A stretch of 64,000 nucleotides of DNA from Spirochaetia bacterium. Lineage in GTDB: Bacteria; Spirochaetota; Spirochaetia; CADAEX01. Under the pieces are notes generated by a model that was not told the DNA's origin, made no database searches, and saw only the letters and a list, made by a program, of their open reading frames with translations. Below, one piece after another: positions 28,045 through 46,564 of this stretch (the stretch's first letter is position 1; every line of letters begins with the position of its first letter). A program made the translations under genes and the position numbers. Location of the stretch: contig CAXXHA010000010.1 of NCBI GenBank assembly GCA_963662265.2, forward strand, positions 256,001-320,000. The letters are read 5' to 3'.

Positions 28045-29395
28045 TTATTCACTCCAGAATAATTTATCAGGATCGCTGTAAAGCTCACACGCTATGATAA
28101 ACCAGGCAGTTCCGGCAACAGAGGGATAATCACTGAAAAGATACGGGAGATTAACAGAAGAATAAACAAGTCCGCCGTCCACCGACATTTCTGTCATGTT
28201 CCTTATGATCTCGAGTCCTTTTTCAGGGCTTCCCCCCCTTATCCATGCGGCAGCTGCGCCAAGCGAACCTTCAGACCATACAACATTTATATCATCCCAT
28301 TCTGTGTTTTCAGAACCGTCAAACTGGTGCCTGTTTAGAGCCTTGTTCTCATAAACCGGTTCATTATAATAGGGGCCATACCCTTTATAACCGTTCCCTT
28401 CTGTCATGAAATTCCGGTCCATAGTCTCCAGAGCTGTCCTGGTTTTTCCTTTAGCCCCTATGCTTTCAAGAAACAGAGCGCCCCAGGAAGCGCCGTCCAG
28501 CGGAAGTGCGGTATCTCTTTTACCGTCTATTTTAATCCCCCGAATAAACTGGCCGGAGCTGTTATCCCAGAATGCTTTAAGAATTGATTTTTTCAGCAGC
28601 TCTCCCCTGTTGAGAAAAAAACCTGTCGCCTGTTACAAGGTAGAGGCTCTTCAGGAGAAAATAGATATCAATGTTATGTTCGACACTTACCCATCCGACA
28701 GGATCATAGTTGTAAACCTCTTCAATACTTTCTTTCTCGTTTGAATATTCTACCTTGTAAGTTCCCCTCCCTCCTGTGACAAGGCCGTAGCGGGAATCAT
28801 TTTTTTCACGCACCTGGTTTTCAAGGAGGTATTTAGCAATTCTTTCAGAAGCCTCTGTATACCGCCTGCCTGCTATGTCATCTTTATAGAAACGGCTCTC
28901 CTCTGTATTCCTGACAGAGACATAATGGGAAAGAGCATAACCTGCCCAGGCAAGGGCACCGCTTCTGATCATTGCCCCCTCATGATCGTTTTCATCAGGC
29001 CAGCTGTTATGTGTATTATACGAAAACCAGAGACTTCCGTTTTCCCGGACCAATCGTGAAAGGGAATTAAGTATTGATTCAGCTTCCCTGTATTTTCCCG
29101 CCATTGTAAAAGCGATTGCAGCAACAGCATTGTCATATGCAAAAGACCTTCTTGCCAGGTAGCGGTATGCGGGATCGTTTTCAGGTATTTTATAGCTGAG
29201 AATAAGTTTTCTCCTGTCGGGAGATGGATTTTCAACAACAGAATTTGGCACTATCTGTCTTTTAAGCCATCTCAGGGATTCTTCATATGCATTGTTGAGA
29301 TCTGTATTTTCCGGCTTGTTGAAGGGGGAATCAGCAGAAACAGGGACAACAGCTGCTGAAATAAGTAAAATAAAATACAATAATCTGTTTTTCAT
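28045..29395 (-). CDS. Secreted six-hairpin (alpha/alpha)6 glycosidase-like protein, frameshifted at the A7 tract 28615-28621
   Basis: Removing one base joins the two ORFs (..TGDRFF-LNRGELLKKSILKAFWD..LPLDGASWG..METMDRNF-like junction) into about 449 aa; YDNA, WVSVEHNID, VWSEGS and SVAGTAWF motifs. Confidence 0.65.
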
Positions 29396-29482: not shown

Positions 29483-30821
29483 ATGAAAAAATTCACTTTT
29501 TTATTATTCATATTATTATTCTCGATAATTTTTCCGCTCTTTTCACAGAATATTTATGAAAACAGGGATGTGGACAAGCTTGTGGAACGGGGAATAAAGT
29601 ATGAAAGAGATAATAATCTGTATGAAGCAATAAAGACATACAGACAGGTACTTCAGCTGGATGATAAAAATTTCCTTGCTCTTATCAGGCTTGCGAAGCT
29701 TCTGAGCTGGACAGAACAGACAGAGGAAGCTCTCTCAATACTGAACCGCCTGGAAAAGGAATATCCTGGCAACAGTGAAACGTATTTCAGGAAAGCCCAG
29801 GTTCTCAGCTGGCAGAAAAAACTATGATGAATCAATAAATTATTACAACAAATTCCTAGAAATGGAACCTGGAGATCTTGATGCAACAATGGGGCTGGGG
29901 AGGGTTTATTTCTGGTCAAAGAAATACAGGAAAGCGATAGACTACTTTAACCTTGCAATAGAAAACAACTACAGCGTAACAGAAGCCCGGCTGAATCTTG
30001 CAAAGATATATTTCAACATGAATGAATCGGTAAAAGCTGAAGAAATACTGCTTATTATCCTGGAGGAGGATCCTGATAATCCCGAGGCAAAAGAACTTTA
30101 CGCAACCCTTCCCCAGTTCATGAAATTCGAAGCTTCCCCATCTATTTTAAAAATGGATTTTTACGAAGGGGGAGATTTCGGCCTTAAACTGTCTCCTTTT
30201 CTCAATTACAGGCTGAACAAGATGTGGGACCTGCGTGTAAAATATGATTTTCTTTCTGCTGACAGCAAATCAGACAGTATATTCTCTGCTGGAGCCACAT
30301 TTAAAGGGGTTAAAAACCTTGCACTTGCTGCAGATATATCAGCGGCTGTCAATCCTGAACTGACTGAAGCCTTCAAGATTGCGGGGCAGGCCAACTACAG
30401 TATAAACAGAAATATCGGAGCAGGAATGGTTGTAGAGCATCTTGCATTCAAGGATATAAACAATCCTGTACAGAGCAATGAGAACCTCACAATTCTTAAA
30501 CCATCTTTCAGTTATTATTTTACAGATATAAGCTACACAACAATCCAGTATATTCAGTATCTTTACGGATCAGGATTCAGCACATCTGCTGTAAGCCTCA
30601 ATATTACACTGGAATACTATAATAAAAATGCCCTCAGCTTTGCGGTAACATATGGCGGAGACTATGAATCAATGGATGAAGACAGGGAGCTTTTTGAAGC
30701 GGGGGGTGGCATTTCCTATCTCTTCAACAACAATTTCCAGCTGGGATTAGGATTTACACATATTGAATCTGAATACAGCACAACAAATCAGGTTATTATA
30801 TCGCCTGTAATAAGGTGGTAG
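29483..30821 (+). CDS. TPR + outer-membrane beta-barrel protein (YaiO/PgaA-like exporter), frameshifted at the A6 tract 29816-29821
   Basis: Signal peptide; TPRs continue across the junction (VLSWQK-NYDESINYY); alternating beta-strands with a C-terminal Trp. Confidence 0.75.
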
Positions 30822-30840
30822 GTAAATATATTATTCTGTA

Positions 30841-30885
30841 AAAAAGCTGATAAACCACTTCTGGAACAGGTTATCAGCTTTTTTT
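30841..30885. terminator. Rho-independent terminator
   Basis: AAAAAGCTGATAA...TTATCAGCTTTTTTT. Confidence 0.8.
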
Positions 30886-31013
30886 ATATCCGGAAAACAA
30901 CAGCTCTTCATGATAATTTCTCATGTATAGGATGATATTAAATATACCATTATTTTCCGGCAGTGTTTTAATCCTCTTGACTAAAAAGGGGTGAATAATT
31001 ATAAACTCACCCT

Positions 31014-31376
31014 ATGAGCGGAAAAATCAGAGACTTTGCAGAAAAAATACTCGGTATCAGCCACGATATTCTTAAAAGAAGGACTGTTCACATAAAATTC
31101 ATTGTCACTCCCGGAAAAGTTGTTTTTGATCCCGAACTGTTTGTTAAATTCGAGGAAACTTACGGTGAGGGAAGCCTCTACCACAAGGATATTGCTGATG
31201 CAAATAATGTTCAGAGAGGAGCAGTCGCAGGCGGGGCCTATGTCTCTGTATCTCATGACAATGTTAAAATTACCGGATACAGCCAGGATTTCGGGTACAT
31301 AACCGGCTATGAGGATCTTGTAGAAAACTACTTCAGAAACTATTTCGACTGTCCTGTTGAATTTGAATCAGCATAG
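31014..31376 (+). CDS. Small protein resembling PHPT1/Janus-Ocnus phosphohistidine phosphatases
   Basis: IKFIV, YHKDI, GGAYV and ITGYSQDFG parallel PHPT1 FKYVL, YHADI, GGGRI and VYGYSMAYG. Confidence 0.6.
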   Translation: MSGKIRDFAEKILGISHDILKRRTVHIKFIVTPGKVVFDPELFVKFEETYGEGSLYHKDIADANNVQRGAVAGGAYVSVSHDNVKITGYSQDFGYITGYEDLVENYFRNYFDCPVEFESA

Positions 31377-31510: not shown

Positions 31511-32596
31511 CTATTCAAGAGCAACTGTTTCAGCAAAAATCTGCTCAAGATCTCCTGAGATCTCGGTAAAGACTTTATAGACATCCGGATCAAAATGTGA
31601 AGGATCTGTCCTTCCGTCCCCTTCGGTAATTATCCGGAAAGCAGTCTCATGATCAAAACTCTTTTTATAGGGCCTTTCACTCCTCAATGCATCATACTGA
31701 TCCGCAATCATTACAATTCGGCTTTCAATAGGGATAGAATCTCCTGAAAGACCATTCGGATACCCTCCGCCGCAGTATTTTTCATGATGAGAGAGGGCAA
31801 TTCTTCCCGCCATCTGTAGCTGGGGGGAAGTGGATTCCTTGAGTATTTTATATCCTATAGTTGTATGTTCCTTCATCAGCTGGAATTCAGCATCTGTAAG
31901 AGGACCGTTTTTCAGAAGAATGCTGTCAGGAATTCCGACCTTTCCTATATCATGCATCATGCCTGCAAGCTTGATAGTATCAATAAAATTCCTGTCCATC
32001 CCGAGTTTTTCAGCAATTCTGGCTGATATGTTGCCGATTCTTAAAATATGAGCGCCTGTATCTGAATCCCTGTACTCAGAGACAGAAACCAGCCTCATAA
32101 TTGTTTCAGTATTTGCAAGTTTAAGCTCTTCATATGCCTTGAAAAGCTCCCTGTCCTGTTCCTCGACACGCTGCTCAAGAGTTATTTTATAGTTTTCCTC
32201 TATCTTGAGCAGTTCTATAAAACGGAGAGCCTTATGAACAGATTTTTTCAGGATAACAAAATCTATAGGCTTGATAAGTATATCAAAAGCATCTTTCTTA
32301 ACTGCCTCAAAAGCAATTTCTATATCAGGAAAACCGGTGATAAGTATCACTGGTTTATTTATATCCTTTTCATGTATTTTGTTGAGAAGTTCAATCCCTC
32401 CCATTACCGGCATTTTTATATCAGTTATAACAAGATCAGCATCATTGCCGTCCAGGTATTCAAGTCCTTCAAGGCCATTAGATTTTTCTACAACATCATA
32501 ACCTACTGTCTCCAGGAGTCTTGCTATACTTCCCCGAATAAATTCATTGTCATCAATAATGAGAATTTTCTTCTTATCTGCATTCTGCTCCATCAA
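31511..32596 (-). CDS. Response regulator with HD-GYP phosphodiesterase domain
   Basis: REC (IIDD, TDIKMP, LIKP); RDSDTGAH, HDIGK, HHEKYCGGGYP, DQYDAL..RPYK. Confidence 0.95.
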   Translation of the reverse strand: MMEQNADKKKILIIDDNEFIRGSIARLLETVGYDVVEKSNGLEGLEYLDGNDADLVITDIKMPVMGGIELLNKIHEKDINKPVILITGFPDIEIAFEAVKKDAFDILIKPIDFVILKKSVHKALRFIELLKIEENYKITLEQRVEEQDRELFKAYEELKLANTETIMRLVSVSEYRDSDTGAHILRIGNISARIAEKLGMDRNFIDTIKLAGMMHDIGKVGIPDSILLKNGPLTDAEFQLMKEHTTIGYKILKESTSPQLQMAGRIALSHHEKYCGGGYPNGLSGDSIPIESRIVMIADQYDALRSERPYKKSFDHETAFRIITEGDGRTDPSHFDPDVYKVFTEISGDLEQIFAETVALE

Positions 32597-32821: not shown

Positions 32822-33295
32822 ATGGAAAATCTCAATCAGATACTTATAGATGGTGTTGAAGCAACAAATAACAATGATTTTGACAGGGCGGAAGAGATCT
32901 TCAGGGAAGCTCTGAAAAATTATCCGGACAATCACATAGTCCTGTATAATCTTGGAATAGTAATGCTGAAGACTGAAAAATTCTCTGATGCGGCTGAAAT
33001 ATTTGAAGAAGCTCTCAAATTTAAAAACACGGATCCTGATATCTGGACAGATGCCGGATTTGCATATCAGGAAATGGGCAATACAGAAAAGGCGCTGTCC
33101 TGTTATGAAAAAGCACTCGAAACAGCAGAAGACAAATCTGTAATTCTCAATAATATAGGAACTGTTTATTTTTCTCAGGAGAATTATAAAGAGGCAAAAA
33201 AATATTTCAGCCAGGCTCTAAGGGAAAACAGGGAATATACACAGGCAAGACAGAATCTCGCGCTTACAAACACTTTTCTTGATGTAATCTCCTGA
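32822..33295 (+). CDS. TPR protein
   Basis: About four TPR repeats; RBS AAGGAG. Confidence 0.9.
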   Translation: MENLNQILIDGVEATNNNDFDRAEEIFREALKNYPDNHIVLYNLGIVMLKTEKFSDAAEIFEEALKFKNTDPDIWTDAGFAYQEMGNTEKALSCYEKALETAEDKSVILNNIGTVYFSQENYKEAKKYFSQALRENREYTQARQNLALTNTFLDVIS

Positions 33296-33300
33296 TTTAT

Positions 33301-34224
33301 TTAAAGGAAAAATTCACTCCCCTCTACAGCAAGTGAAAACTCCATTTTCCGGTGGATATCTGCATATTTGTTTCTGTAGAAATCTATAAGAAAATCCAGC
33401 TCCTCATCTGTCCGTTCAGGGTCATGGTGTGTAAGAAGGAGTTTTTTTACTCCCGCACTGTAGCTCTTTTCTATTGCAAACTCAAAGCTAGAATGCCCCC
33501 AGCCAAGCTTGTCCTTTTCCATTTCATCCTTTGTGTACTGCGAATCATAAACAAGAATATCGGCGCCTGAGAAAAACTCTACAAGCTTCCTGTTCTCTTC
33601 GGCAGCTGCTGCTTCACCCTCTTCGGCTGCAGCACTGTCATAATCAGGATCATCAGGATCGGTTGGAAATACATTTCTGAAAGGCTCTGAATCTGTGGCA
33701 ATACAGAAACATTTACCGCCGCATTCTATTCTGTACCCGAGACAGAGTACAGGATGGTTGAGATATTTTGTAGTTATTTTAATTCCGTCCCTGAGGTAAA
33801 AAGATGTTTCTCTAAGGGGGTTATATTCCATTTCTGCAGAAAGTTCACTTTTTATAACAGGAAAATACCTGTACTGAAACTGGCTGCCTATGATTTCTTC
33901 GATACCGCCCTCTTCATATGTTACAGGTCCGTAAAACCTGAGCTTTGTCGAGGGAATATATATAGGCGTAAAAAAAGGAAACCCGAGAATATGGTCCCAG
34001 TGTGTATGTGTAATGAGAAAATCAAGATCAATATTTTTTCCCGGGAGATATTTTTTTACAAGATAGTTTCCGAGAAGTCTCAAACCTGACCCACCATCAA
34101 TAATTATTTCGCAGCCGCCGTCCTCAGGATCAATTTCAAGACATGTTGTATTTCCGCCATATTTCATTGTATCGGCGCCGGGACTCGGTATAGAGCCCCG
34201 CACTCCCCAGAGTTTTATTCGCAT
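33301..34224 (-). CDS. MBL-fold metallo-hydrolase (phosphodiesterase-like)
   Basis: WGVRGSIPSPG, THTHWDH, LNHP, DSQY, GWGHS, THHDP. Confidence 0.9.
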   Translation of the reverse strand: MRIKLWGVRGSIPSPGADTMKYGGNTTCLEIDPEDGGCEIIIDGGSGLRLLGNYLVKKYLPGKNIDLDFLITHTHWDHILGFPFFTPIYIPSTKLRFYGPVTYEEGGIEEIIGSQFQYRYFPVIKSELSAEMEYNPLRETSFYLRDGIKITTKYLNHPVLCLGYRIECGGKCFCIATDSEPFRNVFPTDPDDPDYDSAAAEEGEAAAAEENRKLVEFFSGADILVYDSQYTKDEMEKDKLGWGHSSFEFAIEKSYSAGVKKLLLTHHDPERTDEELDFLIDFYRNKYADIHRKMEFSLAVEGSEFFL

Positions 34225-34234
34225 AGACTATTCC

Positions 34235-35107
34235 TCAGTTTTTAATTTCAAGAAATATCCTGGCCTTGTCCATCTCCTCTTTTACATAGTCATTTATTTT
34301 TTCAGGATATGTTTCATCAACTCCGGCTTCCTTATAAACAGAGGCAATCGGAACATCCGGACATCTGTTTCCGGAATAATAACAGCCGAAAAGATTTGCA
34401 AAGTAATCTGCCAGAATTATAGTATAAGTCAGTTTTTTATATTTTTCATCCACAGAATTAATATCATGATGTGAAACAATAACATTTTTAACAGGATCTC
34501 CAAGATTCCAGGATTCAGCAATCATCAGCCCTGTTTCTGTGTGGTCCATTCCGAAAAACTCTTTTTCAGCTTCTGCTGTAGAGCCGTAAAAGCCACCTGC
34601 CCGTTTTTCAACCAGCTCTGTATATTCTCCGGGAAAACATGATATCAGCGGTATTTTTCCTATATCATGAAGAAGTCCGTTGATGAAGTATTCCTCCTGC
34701 TCGGCTCTGCTGATTCCTGTGTCTGATGCAATTTTTCTGGCAATAATCCCGGTGCAGAGGGAATGTTCCCAGAATTTATCGCTGTTCATTTTCACAAAAT
34801 TCTTTTCCCCGGACATAAGCCCCATGACTGCGGAGCTGAGCGCGAGGTTTTTTACAGTATTCATTCCAAGCATGATAATTGCACGGACAAGAGAAGTAAC
34901 TTTATCGGAAAGGCCGTAATAGGCAGAATTAATAAGTTTCATGACCTTGCCCATAAGCACAGGGTCAAGGCTTATAACTTTATAAAGATCTACAGGCGAT
35001 GTTTTTGGATTATCACAGATTTCCTGAACCTTGGAAACAGTAACAGGCAGACTCGGCATATTTTTGATGTAGCTGGAGACAACTTTCAGCCGATTACCCT
35101 TCATCAT
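34235..35107 (-). CDS. HDOD domain protein
   Basis: MPSLP, DPVLMGKVMKLINSAYYG, FWEHS, GLLHDIGK, DHTETG..IAESWNL. Confidence 0.92.
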   Translation of the reverse strand: MMKGNRLKVVSSYIKNMPSLPVTVSKVQEICDNPKTSPVDLYKVISLDPVLMGKVMKLINSAYYGLSDKVTSLVRAIIMLGMNTVKNLALSSAVMGLMSGEKNFVKMNSDKFWEHSLCTGIIARKIASDTGISRAEQEEYFINGLLHDIGKIPLISCFPGEYTELVEKRAGGFYGSTAEAEKEFFGMDHTETGLMIAESWNLGDPVKNVIVSHHDINSVDEKYKKLTYTIILADYFANLFGCYYSGNRCPDVPIASVYKEAGVDETYPEKINDYVKEEMDKARIFLEIKN

Positions 35108-37475
35108 TGTTTACCTCTTTAAGCTTTCCAAGAATATTATCAAGCCGTGTGCTGACAGCTTTTCCGGTATCTTTCTCCGGAAGAAAATCAGCAAGTGATT
35201 TTATATAGGAAAGAGTACCTGCTATTTCATTTTCGGTCAAATTTCCATCAACTTCACTGGAATTCCCTGAAACTTCACTCTTATCCTCTGTTTTTACAGA
35301 ATCTATCAGGCCCCTGTTCCCGTTCAGCTTCATCCTGAGCGAATCTATCCGAAGCCTTGTCATGCTGTGCCTGAATTTATCATGAAGAGGAGGTTTGAGA
35401 TCCTCAGCCATGTCTTCAAGATGCCCGAGCAGATTTGAAATCAGAGGGTTTTCATAACCTGATTCCTCCCTGTAATTTACAGGATTATCATCTATTTCAG
35501 GGACCTCTTCAGGCTCCGGCTTTTTTTCCTTTTTTTCTTCAGGCGTATCTTCTTTTATCTCCGGTTCAGACGTTATTTCCTCTTTTGTCTCAGGCTCAGC
35601 CGGGGGTGGAGGCATGTACTGCGGAGGGGGAGGCATGAATACAGGGACAGGTGTATACTGAGGAGGTGCGGAGGCTTCAACCTGTTTTGTAATTTCCTCA
35701 CGGATCTTCTCCTCTTTCTCCTGAAAATATCCCTCACTCTTATCAGGATCAAATTCCTCTTCTATTTCATCAAGCCGGACATGTATTTCCTCTTCATTGA
35801 TTTCTATTACAGGCTCAATTCCCCCGACATCAATTATGGGAACATATTCATCCTCCAGGGCAGATACTGAATCCAGAAGAAAGCTGTTTTCCTCCAGCAC
35901 TTCAGGCTCGCCTGTATCTTCCCTGACAAATTCCTTTATAAACACCCCTATTCTGCTGTCAATTTCATCCCTGTTCTGTTTTGCAAAAGAATCTGAGGCC
36001 TTGTCAAAAAGCTCAACACCCTTTCCAAGCATTTCAATATCAATATCTTCCTGGGATCCGATAAGCCGGCTTGCATACTCCACCGACTTTTCCCTGTCAC
36101 CAATCTGATTATATACATCTACAAACGATGATATTGTCTCGGGATAATTCTGCATATCACCCTTTAGTGATTTTAAAACATTCAATGCATCTTCATATTT
36201 TCCCTGGGACTTCAGAACATCTGTATAGTTGATCAGCAGGGGATAATTTCCCGGGTCTTTTTTAAGCAGATCCCTGAGAAGTATTTCCGCATTGTCCCTG
36301 TCACCAGATGCAATCAATAACTGGGATTTTGCTGTTTTAAGAGCAGCATTGTCAGGAGCCTTGCTTTCCGCCCTGTTTAAAACCGCTTCAGCCTCTTCGA
36401 TTTTCCCTTTTTTGAGAAGAAGCATCCCTCTGGAGGAGACTGCAGTAATATTATCAGGTTCGTTTTCAATTATTCTTTCAATTATATTTTCAGCTTTTTC
36501 TGTCTCCCCCTTGTCCAGATAGACAGATGCCTTGTGCAGTTTTATATCATTGTTCTCGGGAGAAAGGAGTTCAACCCGGCTGAGCTCCTCGAGCGCGTTA
36601 TCAAACTCCCCGTTTTCCCGGTATATTTCTCCCAGGTTAATCGAAGCTTTTATATATCCCGGATTATCGGAAATTGCCTCGCGGAAAAACTTTTTTGCAT
36701 CCTCCCTGCTGCCGATATCCCTGTATGTCGTTCCAATGTTGTTTTTCACCATGGGGTTCCCGGGCTCAATGCTGAGAGCATCATGAAATGTTTTTATCGC
36801 TCGGTTATGCTGCCTGTTTTTTTTATATGCAATTCCCAGGTTGTTGAGGCTGTCTACCCAGACAGGCTGCGAAGAGAGTGCGTGTTTATACATCTGGATA
36901 GCATCATCAATCCTGTCCAAGCTGTCATATAGTATTCCAAGGTTATACAAAAGTGATGGGTTGTTTTCATCAACCTTAAGCCCTTCCCGGAAAACCTGCT
37001 CAGCTTTTTCAGTTTCGCCGGCATTCTGGTACAGTGTGCCGAGATTATTGTAACACTGGACAAAGCTGCTGTTCAGCTGAATTGCGGATAGAAAATATTT
37101 TTCAGCATTTGTAAAATCATTTTTCTGTTTATAGATATTCCCGATATTATAGTTGATTTCCGGACTGTCCGGATAAAGAGAGAGTGCCTTTTCAAGGTAA
37201 TATAATGCCTTGTCAGGATTATTTTTCTGCCTGTAAATTACAGCGATATTGGAATAACTGTCAGGGTTGTCCGGGTTTACAGAGAATGCCTCGTTATAGT
37301 ATTTTTCTGCATTTTCAAGATCACCCTGGAGGAAATAAATATTACCGAGAGTAATATGGAGTTTGTCATTGTCCTGATCATCTTCAAGTGCTTCAAAGAC
37401 TGTTTCTTCAGCTTTTTTATAATCCTTAATCTGAATCAGAGATGATATTTTGTCATAAAGTTCTTTGCTCAACAT
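35094..37475 (-). CDS. Large TPR protein with acidic/proline-rich C-terminal region
   Basis: More than ten TPRs (YNNLG, LYNLG); PPQYTPVPVFMPPPPQYMPPPP linker. Confidence 0.9.
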   Translation of the reverse strand: MLSKELYDKISSLIQIKDYKKAEETVFEALEDDQDNDKLHITLGNIYFLQGDLENAEKYYNEAFSVNPDNPDSYSNIAVIYRQKNNPDKALYYLEKALSLYPDSPEINYNIGNIYKQKNDFTNAEKYFLSAIQLNSSFVQCYNNLGTLYQNAGETEKAEQVFREGLKVDENNPSLLYNLGILYDSLDRIDDAIQMYKHALSSQPVWVDSLNNLGIAYKKNRQHNRAIKTFHDALSIEPGNPMVKNNIGTTYRDIGSREDAKKFFREAISDNPGYIKASINLGEIYRENGEFDNALEELSRVELLSPENNDIKLHKASVYLDKGETEKAENIIERIIENEPDNITAVSSRGMLLLKKGKIEEAEAVLNRAESKAPDNAALKTAKSQLLIASGDRDNAEILLRDLLKKDPGNYPLLINYTDVLKSQGKYEDALNVLKSLKGDMQNYPETISSFVDVYNQIGDREKSVEYASRLIGSQEDIDIEMLGKGVELFDKASDSFAKQNRDEIDSRIGVFIKEFVREDTGEPEVLEENSFLLDSVSALEDEYVPIIDVGGIEPVIEINEEEIHVRLDEIEEEFDPDKSEGYFQEKEEKIREEITKQVEASAPPQYTPVPVFMPPPPQYMPPPPAEPETKEEITSEPEIKEDTPEEKKEKKPEPEEVPEIDDNPVNYREESGYENPLISNLLGHLEDMAEDLKPPLHDKFRHSMTRLRIDSLRMKLNGNRGLIDSVKTEDKSEVSGNSSEVDGNLTENEIAGTLSYIKSLADFLPEKDTGKAVSTRLDNILGKLKEVNNDEG

Positions 37476-45769: not shown

Positions 45770-46359
45770 TATTCAATCCTGAACTTATCAGCTTTAATCC
45801 AGTCTGTACTCTCCACAATTCCAGGTATGATAAATGAAAAAAGGTTAAACGGTGGTACCAGTTTTATAACTTTGAGATTAATTTTTCCGAGAATATAATA
45901 ATCGCCCGGTTTTTCATCCGAAAGATCAATTTCCAGATTATTCAGAATATAAAAATTATCAAGAAATTCCTTTTCAGTGTTGTAAACTATTTTTCCGCTT
46001 TTTTCATTGACAATATGAAACTGGCCGTTTATCAAATCTTTTTTACCTATATATGAACAGGTGAGATCCCTGACCAGGCTATCCCCGAACAGGCTGAACA
46101 CCCTGCGGTCCTTCCTGTAAATCTTTATCCTGTATTCGATTTCAGCCCTGTGACCAATCTCCATTGAACGGAGGATATTTCGCCCCCTGACATCATCGGC
46201 GGAAACCGAGCAGACAAGATGGTTTGTGCTGTCGAGGGTACTGTCCAGCTGAAAAGCATAAAGAGGAAATCCGATAATAAACAGAAATAAAAAAAGTCTA
46301 TTCTTCTTCAAATTTATTTTCAAAAAGCTGAAAAACCGCATCAGCAGCAGCTTCTTCAT
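45769..46359 (-). CDS. DUF4390-like exported protein
   Basis: Located directly upstream of ntrY; signal-like hydrophobic stretch; true start probably a later TTG (46323 or 46311). Confidence 0.6.
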   Translation of the reverse strand: MKKLLLMRFFSFLKINLKKNRLFLFLFIIGFPLYAFQLDSTLDSTNHLVCSVSADDVRGRNILRSMEIGHRAEIEYRIKIYRKDRRVFSLFGDSLVRDLTCSYIGKKDLINGQFHIVNEKSGKIVYNTEKEFLDNFYILNNLEIDLSDEKPGDYYILGKINLKVIKLVPPFNLFSFIIPGIVESTDWIKADKFRIE

Positions 46360-46564
46360 CCTCCCCTTCCGCTATTATTGTAAGCGCAGTTTTATAACCT
46401 GCCGCAAGTGTAATTATACCCATAATTGATTTCGCATTTATTTCATCATTGTCTTTTCTGAATTTCAGATCACAGCTGAACTGATTAGCTGTCTTTACAA
46501 TTGCTGCCGCAGGTCTGGCATGAATGCCTGCCCTGTTTTTTACTACAACCTCTTTTTCTATCAT
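46298..46564 (-). CDS. ptsH: Phosphocarrier protein HPr
   Basis: GIHARPA (His15), NAKSIMG (Ser46), AEGEDE. Confidence 0.96.
   Translation of the reverse strand: MIEKEVVVKNRAGIHARPAAAIVKTANQFSCDLKFRKDNDEINAKSIMGIITLAAGYKTALTIIAEGEDEEAAADAVFQLFENKFEEE

Follow-up and report, generated by a model that had tools for sequence, protein, structure and literature searches.

Phosphohistidine (pHis) is used far more in bacteria than in animals. According to the available extract of a 2020 paper, SixA, PHPT1, PGAM5, and LHPP are the only four pHis phosphatases with proposed in vivo targets, and SixA is the sole bacterial one among them (PMC7948535). Human PHPT1 (PDB 2HW4, 2NMM, and 2AI6), a 14-kDa phosphohistidine phosphatase of the Janus/Ocnus family PF05005, differs from SixA in fold and in chemistry: SixA uses a phospho-His enzyme intermediate, whereas PHPT1 hydrolyzes its substrate directly, with His53 as the general base and without a phospho-enzyme intermediate (extracts of PMC7948535 and PMC11277029). 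The catalytic site of human PHPT1 consists of Lys21, His53, Ala54, Arg78, Ser94, and Ala96, to which Glu51, Tyr52, Tyr93, and Met95 are added for substrate binding, and it sits between the α1-β4 and β5-α2 loops (PMC4817053, in the part of the text available). At the title and abstract level, our literature search found no characterized bacterial PHPT1-type enzyme. In this study, we describe a 120-aa protein encoded in a 64,000-nucleotide stretch of a spirochaete genome (Spirochaetia bacterium, contig CAXXHA010000010.1, positions 256,001 to 320,000; hereafter the window), which, from its predicted fold and conserved residues, is a good candidate for a second kind of bacterial phosphohistidine phosphatase.

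The gene is a single open reading frame (ORF) with an ATG start, and the ORF listing and translation of the window contain both the frame and the motifs read by the first-pass annotation, namely IKFIV (residues 27-31), YHKDI (56-60), GGAYV (73-77), ITGYSQDFG (86-94), and YFRNYFDCPVEF (106-117). It is under strong purifying selection: compared with its two nearest orthologues, nonsynonymous and synonymous differences per site (pN and pS) are 0.09-0.15 and 0.67-0.81, the synonymous sites being near saturation, and dN/dS is 0.029 and 0.096 where dS is computable. When 5.8 billion clusters were searched with a word index, 34 candidates came up, of which 33 matched the protein at E ≤ 0.01, all 33 being 85-169 aa long and 55-84% identical to it. 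A 31-member profile matched 48 clusters, all at E ≤ 3.7e-20, before a jump to E 8.6 for the next match. This gap gives the protein's family a sharp edge: by profile search it is a closed set of 48 clusters that has no name. Given the cluster matches, the profile matches, and the low dN/dS, the ORF is a real, constrained gene and not a chance ORF. HMMER, run in full against 1.84 billion representatives at 50% identity, matched only four at E ≤ 0.001, and the sole name given to the family proteins in any source is "hypothetical protein".

The evidence that links this family to PHPT1 is structural. An AlphaFold2 model of the protein, built from a 32-member alignment with a mean predicted local distance difference test score of 94.8 and a predicted template modelling (TM) score of 0.88, shows a mixed β-sheet flanked by two helices, as in PHPT1. 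The top five Foldseek matches were all PHPT1 chains (probability 0.85-1.00, TM about 0.5), although the best E-value was 1.7e-3, so that none passes E ≤ 0.001. Among solved structures, PHPT1 alone stood at least 4 Z units over all else, in two independent models. The AlphaFold and Foldseek comparison that the first-pass annotation had proposed thus agrees with its suggestion of a PHPT1 homologue, human PHPT1 being the sole solved structure that stands out, and the match of the predicted fold is specific to PHPT1. The structural alignment covers residues 24-119 of the model and 17-122 of the PHPT1 chain; a conserved extra helix pair at residues 3-21, with F8, A9, E10, L13, and L20 each at ≥ 90%, lies outside the aligned region. 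Furthermore, in a comparison of language-model features, the three ESM Atlas clusters closest to the protein have PF05005 on 52-55% of their members and 193-196 of 256 features in common with it, with scores of 0.86-0.87 that count as a lead only on the search's own scale. We regard true PHPT1-fold kinship as very probable.

The residues on which PHPT1 chemistry depends are largely retained. Within the 31-member alignment, Lys28, His57, Asp59, Ile60, Gly73, Gly74, Gly88, Ser90, and Gly94 are invariant, Tyr56 and Phe93 are each found in 30 members, and position 58 holds Lys in all but one, which has Arg. Lys28 lies within an invariant I-K-F-I on the first core strand of the model (25-32), and an offset of 7 (model residue 24 against chain residue 17) pairs it with Lys21. 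His57, with Tyr56 before it, is located in the loop that connects helix 40-50 to strand 73-79; in PHPT1, His53 follows Tyr52 in the loop after helix α1, and the equivalence of the two His residues is taken from the motif and the aligned ranges. Ser90 is in loop 88-99, between strand 84-87 and helix 100-111; the aligned ranges fit its pairing with Ser94, and the loops holding His57 and Ser90 are the same two as in PHPT1. Consequently, the Lys, His, and Ser picked out by the first-pass annotation are conserved in 31 of 31 aligned members. The human residue names and numbers that it had set beside them agree, in motif order, with the available text of PMC4817053, while the comparison strings themselves are its own.

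Several observations weigh against placing the protein in the PHPT1 family PF05005. The position corresponding to Arg78 (position 76) is Phe in 17, Tyr in 13, and Ser in one of the 31 members, and no conserved Arg or Lys is found in the alignment on the strand that holds it. The first-pass annotation had noted the replacement of this Arg by Tyr in the window protein. Sequence comparison also gives little: the gathering score of Pfam Ocnus (PF05005) is 23 bits, and the window protein had no match in Pfam or NCBIfam at E ≤ 10, nor did PF05005 have any match in the window's entire genome. When 35 relatives were scanned singly, four gave Ocnus matches of 12.6-13.5 bits (E 0.08-0.15), all under the cut-off, and the expected profile match to Ocnus thus failed to appear. 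These weak matches are collinear with the profile; two of them put the YH-motif Tyr on profile position 43, and one spreads 42 residues over 50 profile positions, in agreement with the 8-residue shorter His-to-Ser spacing of the family. Sequence and profile searches of the PDB with the window protein, a 32-member profile, and two relatives never reached PHPT1, and their weak matches to a C-terminal processing protease, HPPD, and a cellulase (E 0.1-1) are attributable to chance. As judged from these searches, no sequence method places the family in PHPT1/Ocnus, and predicted fold and residue conservation, but no sequence statistic, support a bacterial PHPT1 relative that retains Lys, His, and Ser and lacks the Arg. 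Because both the Pfam membership test and the test of one catalytic residue failed, the protein is better treated as a new variant of the PHPT1 fold, a sequence orphan, than as a member of PF05005.

The SixA and histidine phosphatase superfamily models (TIGR00249 and PF00300) did not match the protein in the Pfam and NCBIfam scans. PHROGs gave nothing usable (phrog_37406 at E 0.03, function unknown). Four members out of 32 reached DUF7237 over an N-terminal part, below threshold, the best of them at E 0.018. Among the viral folds of BFVD nothing matched at E ≤ 0.001, and tblastn against 50,697 phage records gave a lone match at E 7.

By analogy with PHPT1, we lean slightly towards a divergent PHPT1-fold enzyme that works as a phosphoramidate or pHis hydrolase. 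It would be a soluble 120-aa enzyme, remotely homologous to eukaryotic phosphohistidine phosphatase 1 but beyond the reach of sequence profiles. As in PHPT1, His57 would serve as general base to activate water, and the P-N bond of phosphohistidine, possibly also of phospholysine, would be hydrolyzed without a phospho-enzyme intermediate. The phosphoryl group would be held by Lys28, the Ser90 hydroxyl, and backbone amides of the active-site loops 51-72 and 88-99, and the nearly invariant Lys58 beside His57 may substitute for the missing Arg78. A narrower proposal, that the protein is a pHis/phospholysine phosphatase acting beside SixA on phosphorelay or PTS (phosphotransferase system) proteins, perhaps targeted by a TPR protein, is tentative and at present rather doubtful.

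The candidate substrates for such an activity can be read from the genome. A bona fide SixA is encoded there (G000:C25:23006-23452; 87.6 bits, cut-off 74.5), and therefore the 120-aa protein would add to SixA and not replace it. Three HPr-type matches and six Hpt domains above cut-off are also present, together with histidine kinases and CheA-type proteins; with HPr and Hpt domains encoded, potential substrates of a pHis phosphatase are plentiful. CheA has been reported, in a source available only in part, as an in vitro substrate of PHPT1-type enzymes. One of the HPr (PTS phosphocarrier) genes is in the window itself, about 15 kb downstream at 46316-46561 on the minus strand (PF00381, 101.8 bits); it is a possible pHis substrate, although unlinked to the 120-aa gene.

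Alternatively, the protein may have the PHPT1 fold and no longer be a phosphatase, acting as a small regulator or adaptor whose pocket binds a ligand or a phosphorylated partner without hydrolysis. The loss of Arg78 from the catalytic site, the conserved helix pair beyond the PHPT1-aligned region, and a small TPR neighbour retained in 18 of 39 loci are compatible with this. However, the residues that are invariant throughout the family are those of PHPT1's chemistry (His base, Lys, and Ser), position 58 is basic in 31 of 31 members, and the gut subclade has no TPR linkage, four of its nine genomes having generic TPR matches only. We consider such a loss of activity unlikely. Somewhat less likely still is a PHPT1-type hydrolase whose substrate is not a phosphoprotein but a small molecule, such as a phosphoramidate, an acyl phosphate, or a similar metabolite. 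PHPT1 is not confined to pHis proteins and is reported also to dephosphorylate chemically phosphorylated polylysine and histone H1 (abstract of PMC4389004), metabolic neighbours (a GH63-like hydrolase and HydE) accompany the gene in 16 of 39 loci, and its presence throughout the order, even in genomes of 1.2-1.8 Mb, fits a housekeeping role. Nevertheless, no conserved neighbour indicates a particular metabolite, and HydE may have become linked to the gene only once, in a single clade; the two HydE genes of the window's genome are both on other contigs. Finally, that the PHPT1 resemblance reflects convergence or a shared simple α/β arrangement in an unrelated family of different function is very improbable in view of the isolated position of PHPT1 in two independent models, the independent pointing of language-model features to PF05005 clusters, the order Lys ... 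YHxDI ... GG ... GxSxx[FY]G that agrees with Tyr52-His53-Ala54 and Tyr93-Ser94-Met95-Ala96 of human PHPT1 (as far as the available source text shows), and the shortening of the His-to-Ser spacing by the very 8 profile positions skipped in the weak Pfam match. We thus infer homology with PHPT1 rather than convergence, and catalysis by the 120-aa protein is likewise inferred, by analogy.

The family has a narrow distribution. Its profile gave one match per genome in 20 of 20 genomes of the window's GTDB order, which comprises one family and four genera with genomes of 1.2-3.9 Mb. It matched three of 401 evenly sampled Spirochaetota, all three in the window's GTDB family, and none of the 398 others. 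A scan of one genome per species over 185,579 species yielded 19 loci with the family gene, every one titled Spirochaet*, a metagenome scan added 17, and an IMG/VR scan yielded none. The family is therefore restricted to one order of uncultured spirochaetes and is single-copy throughout the sampled genomes of that order. Canonical PF05005 was above cut-off in none of the 401 Spirochaetota; the lone sub-threshold Ocnus match among them (G308, 19.3 bits) runs antisense within a 402-aa ORF and is spurious. A recent transfer from eukaryotes is not favoured on sequence grounds because of the identity of about 20% and the closed family. None of the 7,997 candidates scored was a longer or fused form, which is weak evidence by the search's own grading. 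A metagenomic protein of 121 aa (P0035) joins 33 unrelated N-terminal residues to the 87 C-terminal residues of the family on a 624-base contig, and is probably a chimeric or mis-called ORF rather than a real fusion.

Compared with human PHPT1, the spirochaete family shows about 18-21% identity, under the Pfam threshold, has an aromatic residue at the Arg78 position and a basic residue after His where PHPT1 has Ala54, and differs in the His-to-Ser spacing and in the extra N-terminal two-helix segment; it is also bacterial, and confined to one spirochaete order. The nearest proteins by language-model features are bacterial and phage Ocnus-domain proteins of 125-139 aa in the ESM Atlas (commonest phylum Nitrospirota; Uroviricota), which, unlike the spirochaete family, are recognized in part by PF05005, and between the two no sequence link was found in the profile search, which ends at E 3.7e-20. 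The novelty of the family is tempered by these unnamed bacterial and phage proteins already in the databases. With SixA it would share its proposed job, the dephosphorylation of pHis on phosphorelay or PTS proteins. If the proposed activity is true, bacteria would have their first enzyme that uses the PHPT1 mechanism in a physiological role, and direct-hydrolysis pHis phosphatase would be no eukaryotic invention and would be workable without Arg78. A PHPT1 active site with Lys, His, and Ser but no Arg would also be a natural test of the role of that Arg. Since few pHis phosphatases are known and bacteria are rich in pHis, a second, mechanistically different bacterial one would add a control point to two-component, chemotaxis, or PTS signalling.

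The features read at and around the gene are listed in Table 1. The promoter elements TTGACT...TGAA.AA.TATAAA are invariant across four aligned upstream regions (the window, WIN, and loci L005, L006, and L044), and this promoter is absent from the output of the consensus promoter scan. No Shine-Dalgarno sequence is seen at normal spacing ahead of the ATG; the promoter ends so close to the start codon that a leaderless mRNA is suggested, and the transcript is probably leaderless or near-leaderless. The stem arms of the upstream hairpin are also present in L005, and the hairpin is absent from the output of the terminator scan, whose loop limit is 8 nt. It is likely, from its sequence, to be a two-way terminator ending the upstream gene, and the 120-aa gene would therefore be a separate transcription unit.

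Table 1. Positions in the window of the 120-aa gene, its predicted active-site codons, and nearby features
Feature	Position	Strand	Basis
Hairpin AGCTGATAAAC...GTTATCAGCT with flanking A-run and T-run	30840..30886	.	Read from sequence
Sigma-70-like promoter: TTGACT, 17 nt, TATAAA, then 7 nt to ATG	30978..31006	+	Read from sequence
Coding sequence of the 120-aa predicted PHPT1-fold protein, stop included	31014..31376	+	ORF, family conservation, purifying selection, AlphaFold2 model, PHPT1 as sole structural match
Predicted active-site codons	Lys28 31095-31097; His57 31182-31184; Lys58 31185-31187; Ser90 31281-31283	+	
Small cytoplasmic TPR protein, 157 aa	32822..33295	+	Pfam TPR families

Upstream of the gene are a polysaccharide deacetylase gene and a TPR/β-barrel gene, and the convergent neighbour (31511..32596, minus strand) encodes a REC protein with HD_5/HD and an HHE...GYP stretch. 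The convergence on a REC-HD-GYP gene noted in the first-pass annotation is present in the window, but as a functional context it finds no support: because the adjacency occurs in only four of 39 loci (WIN, L005, L006, and L048), which are closest relatives, and on the opposite strand, a functional partnership was rejected. The small TPR protein has full-length orthologues of 36-65% identity; in 11 of the 18 loci where it adjoins the family gene it is on the same strand with gaps of 25-45 bases. Three genera of the order have a strong orthologue of it in 11 of 11 genomes, whereas in the gut genus the orthologue is unlinked in five of nine genomes and represented by generic matches in the rest. 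Outside the gut subclade no other neighbour is retained as widely, and the small TPR protein is possibly a partner.

The 16 loci with metabolic neighbours belong to the gut/rumen subclade (L013:5989-7335, L003, L004, L014-L017, L019-L021, L023, L053, L055-L057, and L059), in which HydE, the [FeFe]-hydrogenase maturase (TIGR03956, 315.9 bits against a cut-off of 254.6), lies 7-21 bases downstream and a divergent GH63/MGH1-like hydrolase upstream. Five of the 39 loci have neither a TPR nor a HydE neighbour. Some loci are the same contig in two collections (L012/L050, L018/L058, and L022/L054, and probably L003/L015 and L004/L023), and the tree has 33 rows, L018, L048, L050, L054, L056, and L058 being left out as duplicates or partial. 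In this tree the rows with the HydE context group in a single clade (support 100/99) and the TPR context is found in 13 of the 18 rows outside it; thus each linkage may be a single inherited event.

The small TPR gene opens a block at 32822-37475 that also encodes MBL-fold, HDOD, and 793-aa TPR proteins. The block is kept in WIN, L005, L006, L009, and L010 and partly in L047 and L048; its MBL-fold protein resembles RNase Z or cyclic-nucleotide phosphodiesterases, below the cut-offs. Together with the nearby GGDEF-REC and REC-HD-GYP genes, the block looks like a signalling neighbourhood. On the other side of the 120-aa gene, the genes at 28048-29395 (minus strand) and 29537-30818 (plus strand) are each broken into two frames in the window, whereas in L005 they are single ORFs of 446 and 445 aa. 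The frame changes are near homopolymer runs (A7 and T6 near 28589-28620; A6 near 29793-29821) and could represent assembly errors, phase variation, or pseudogenes.
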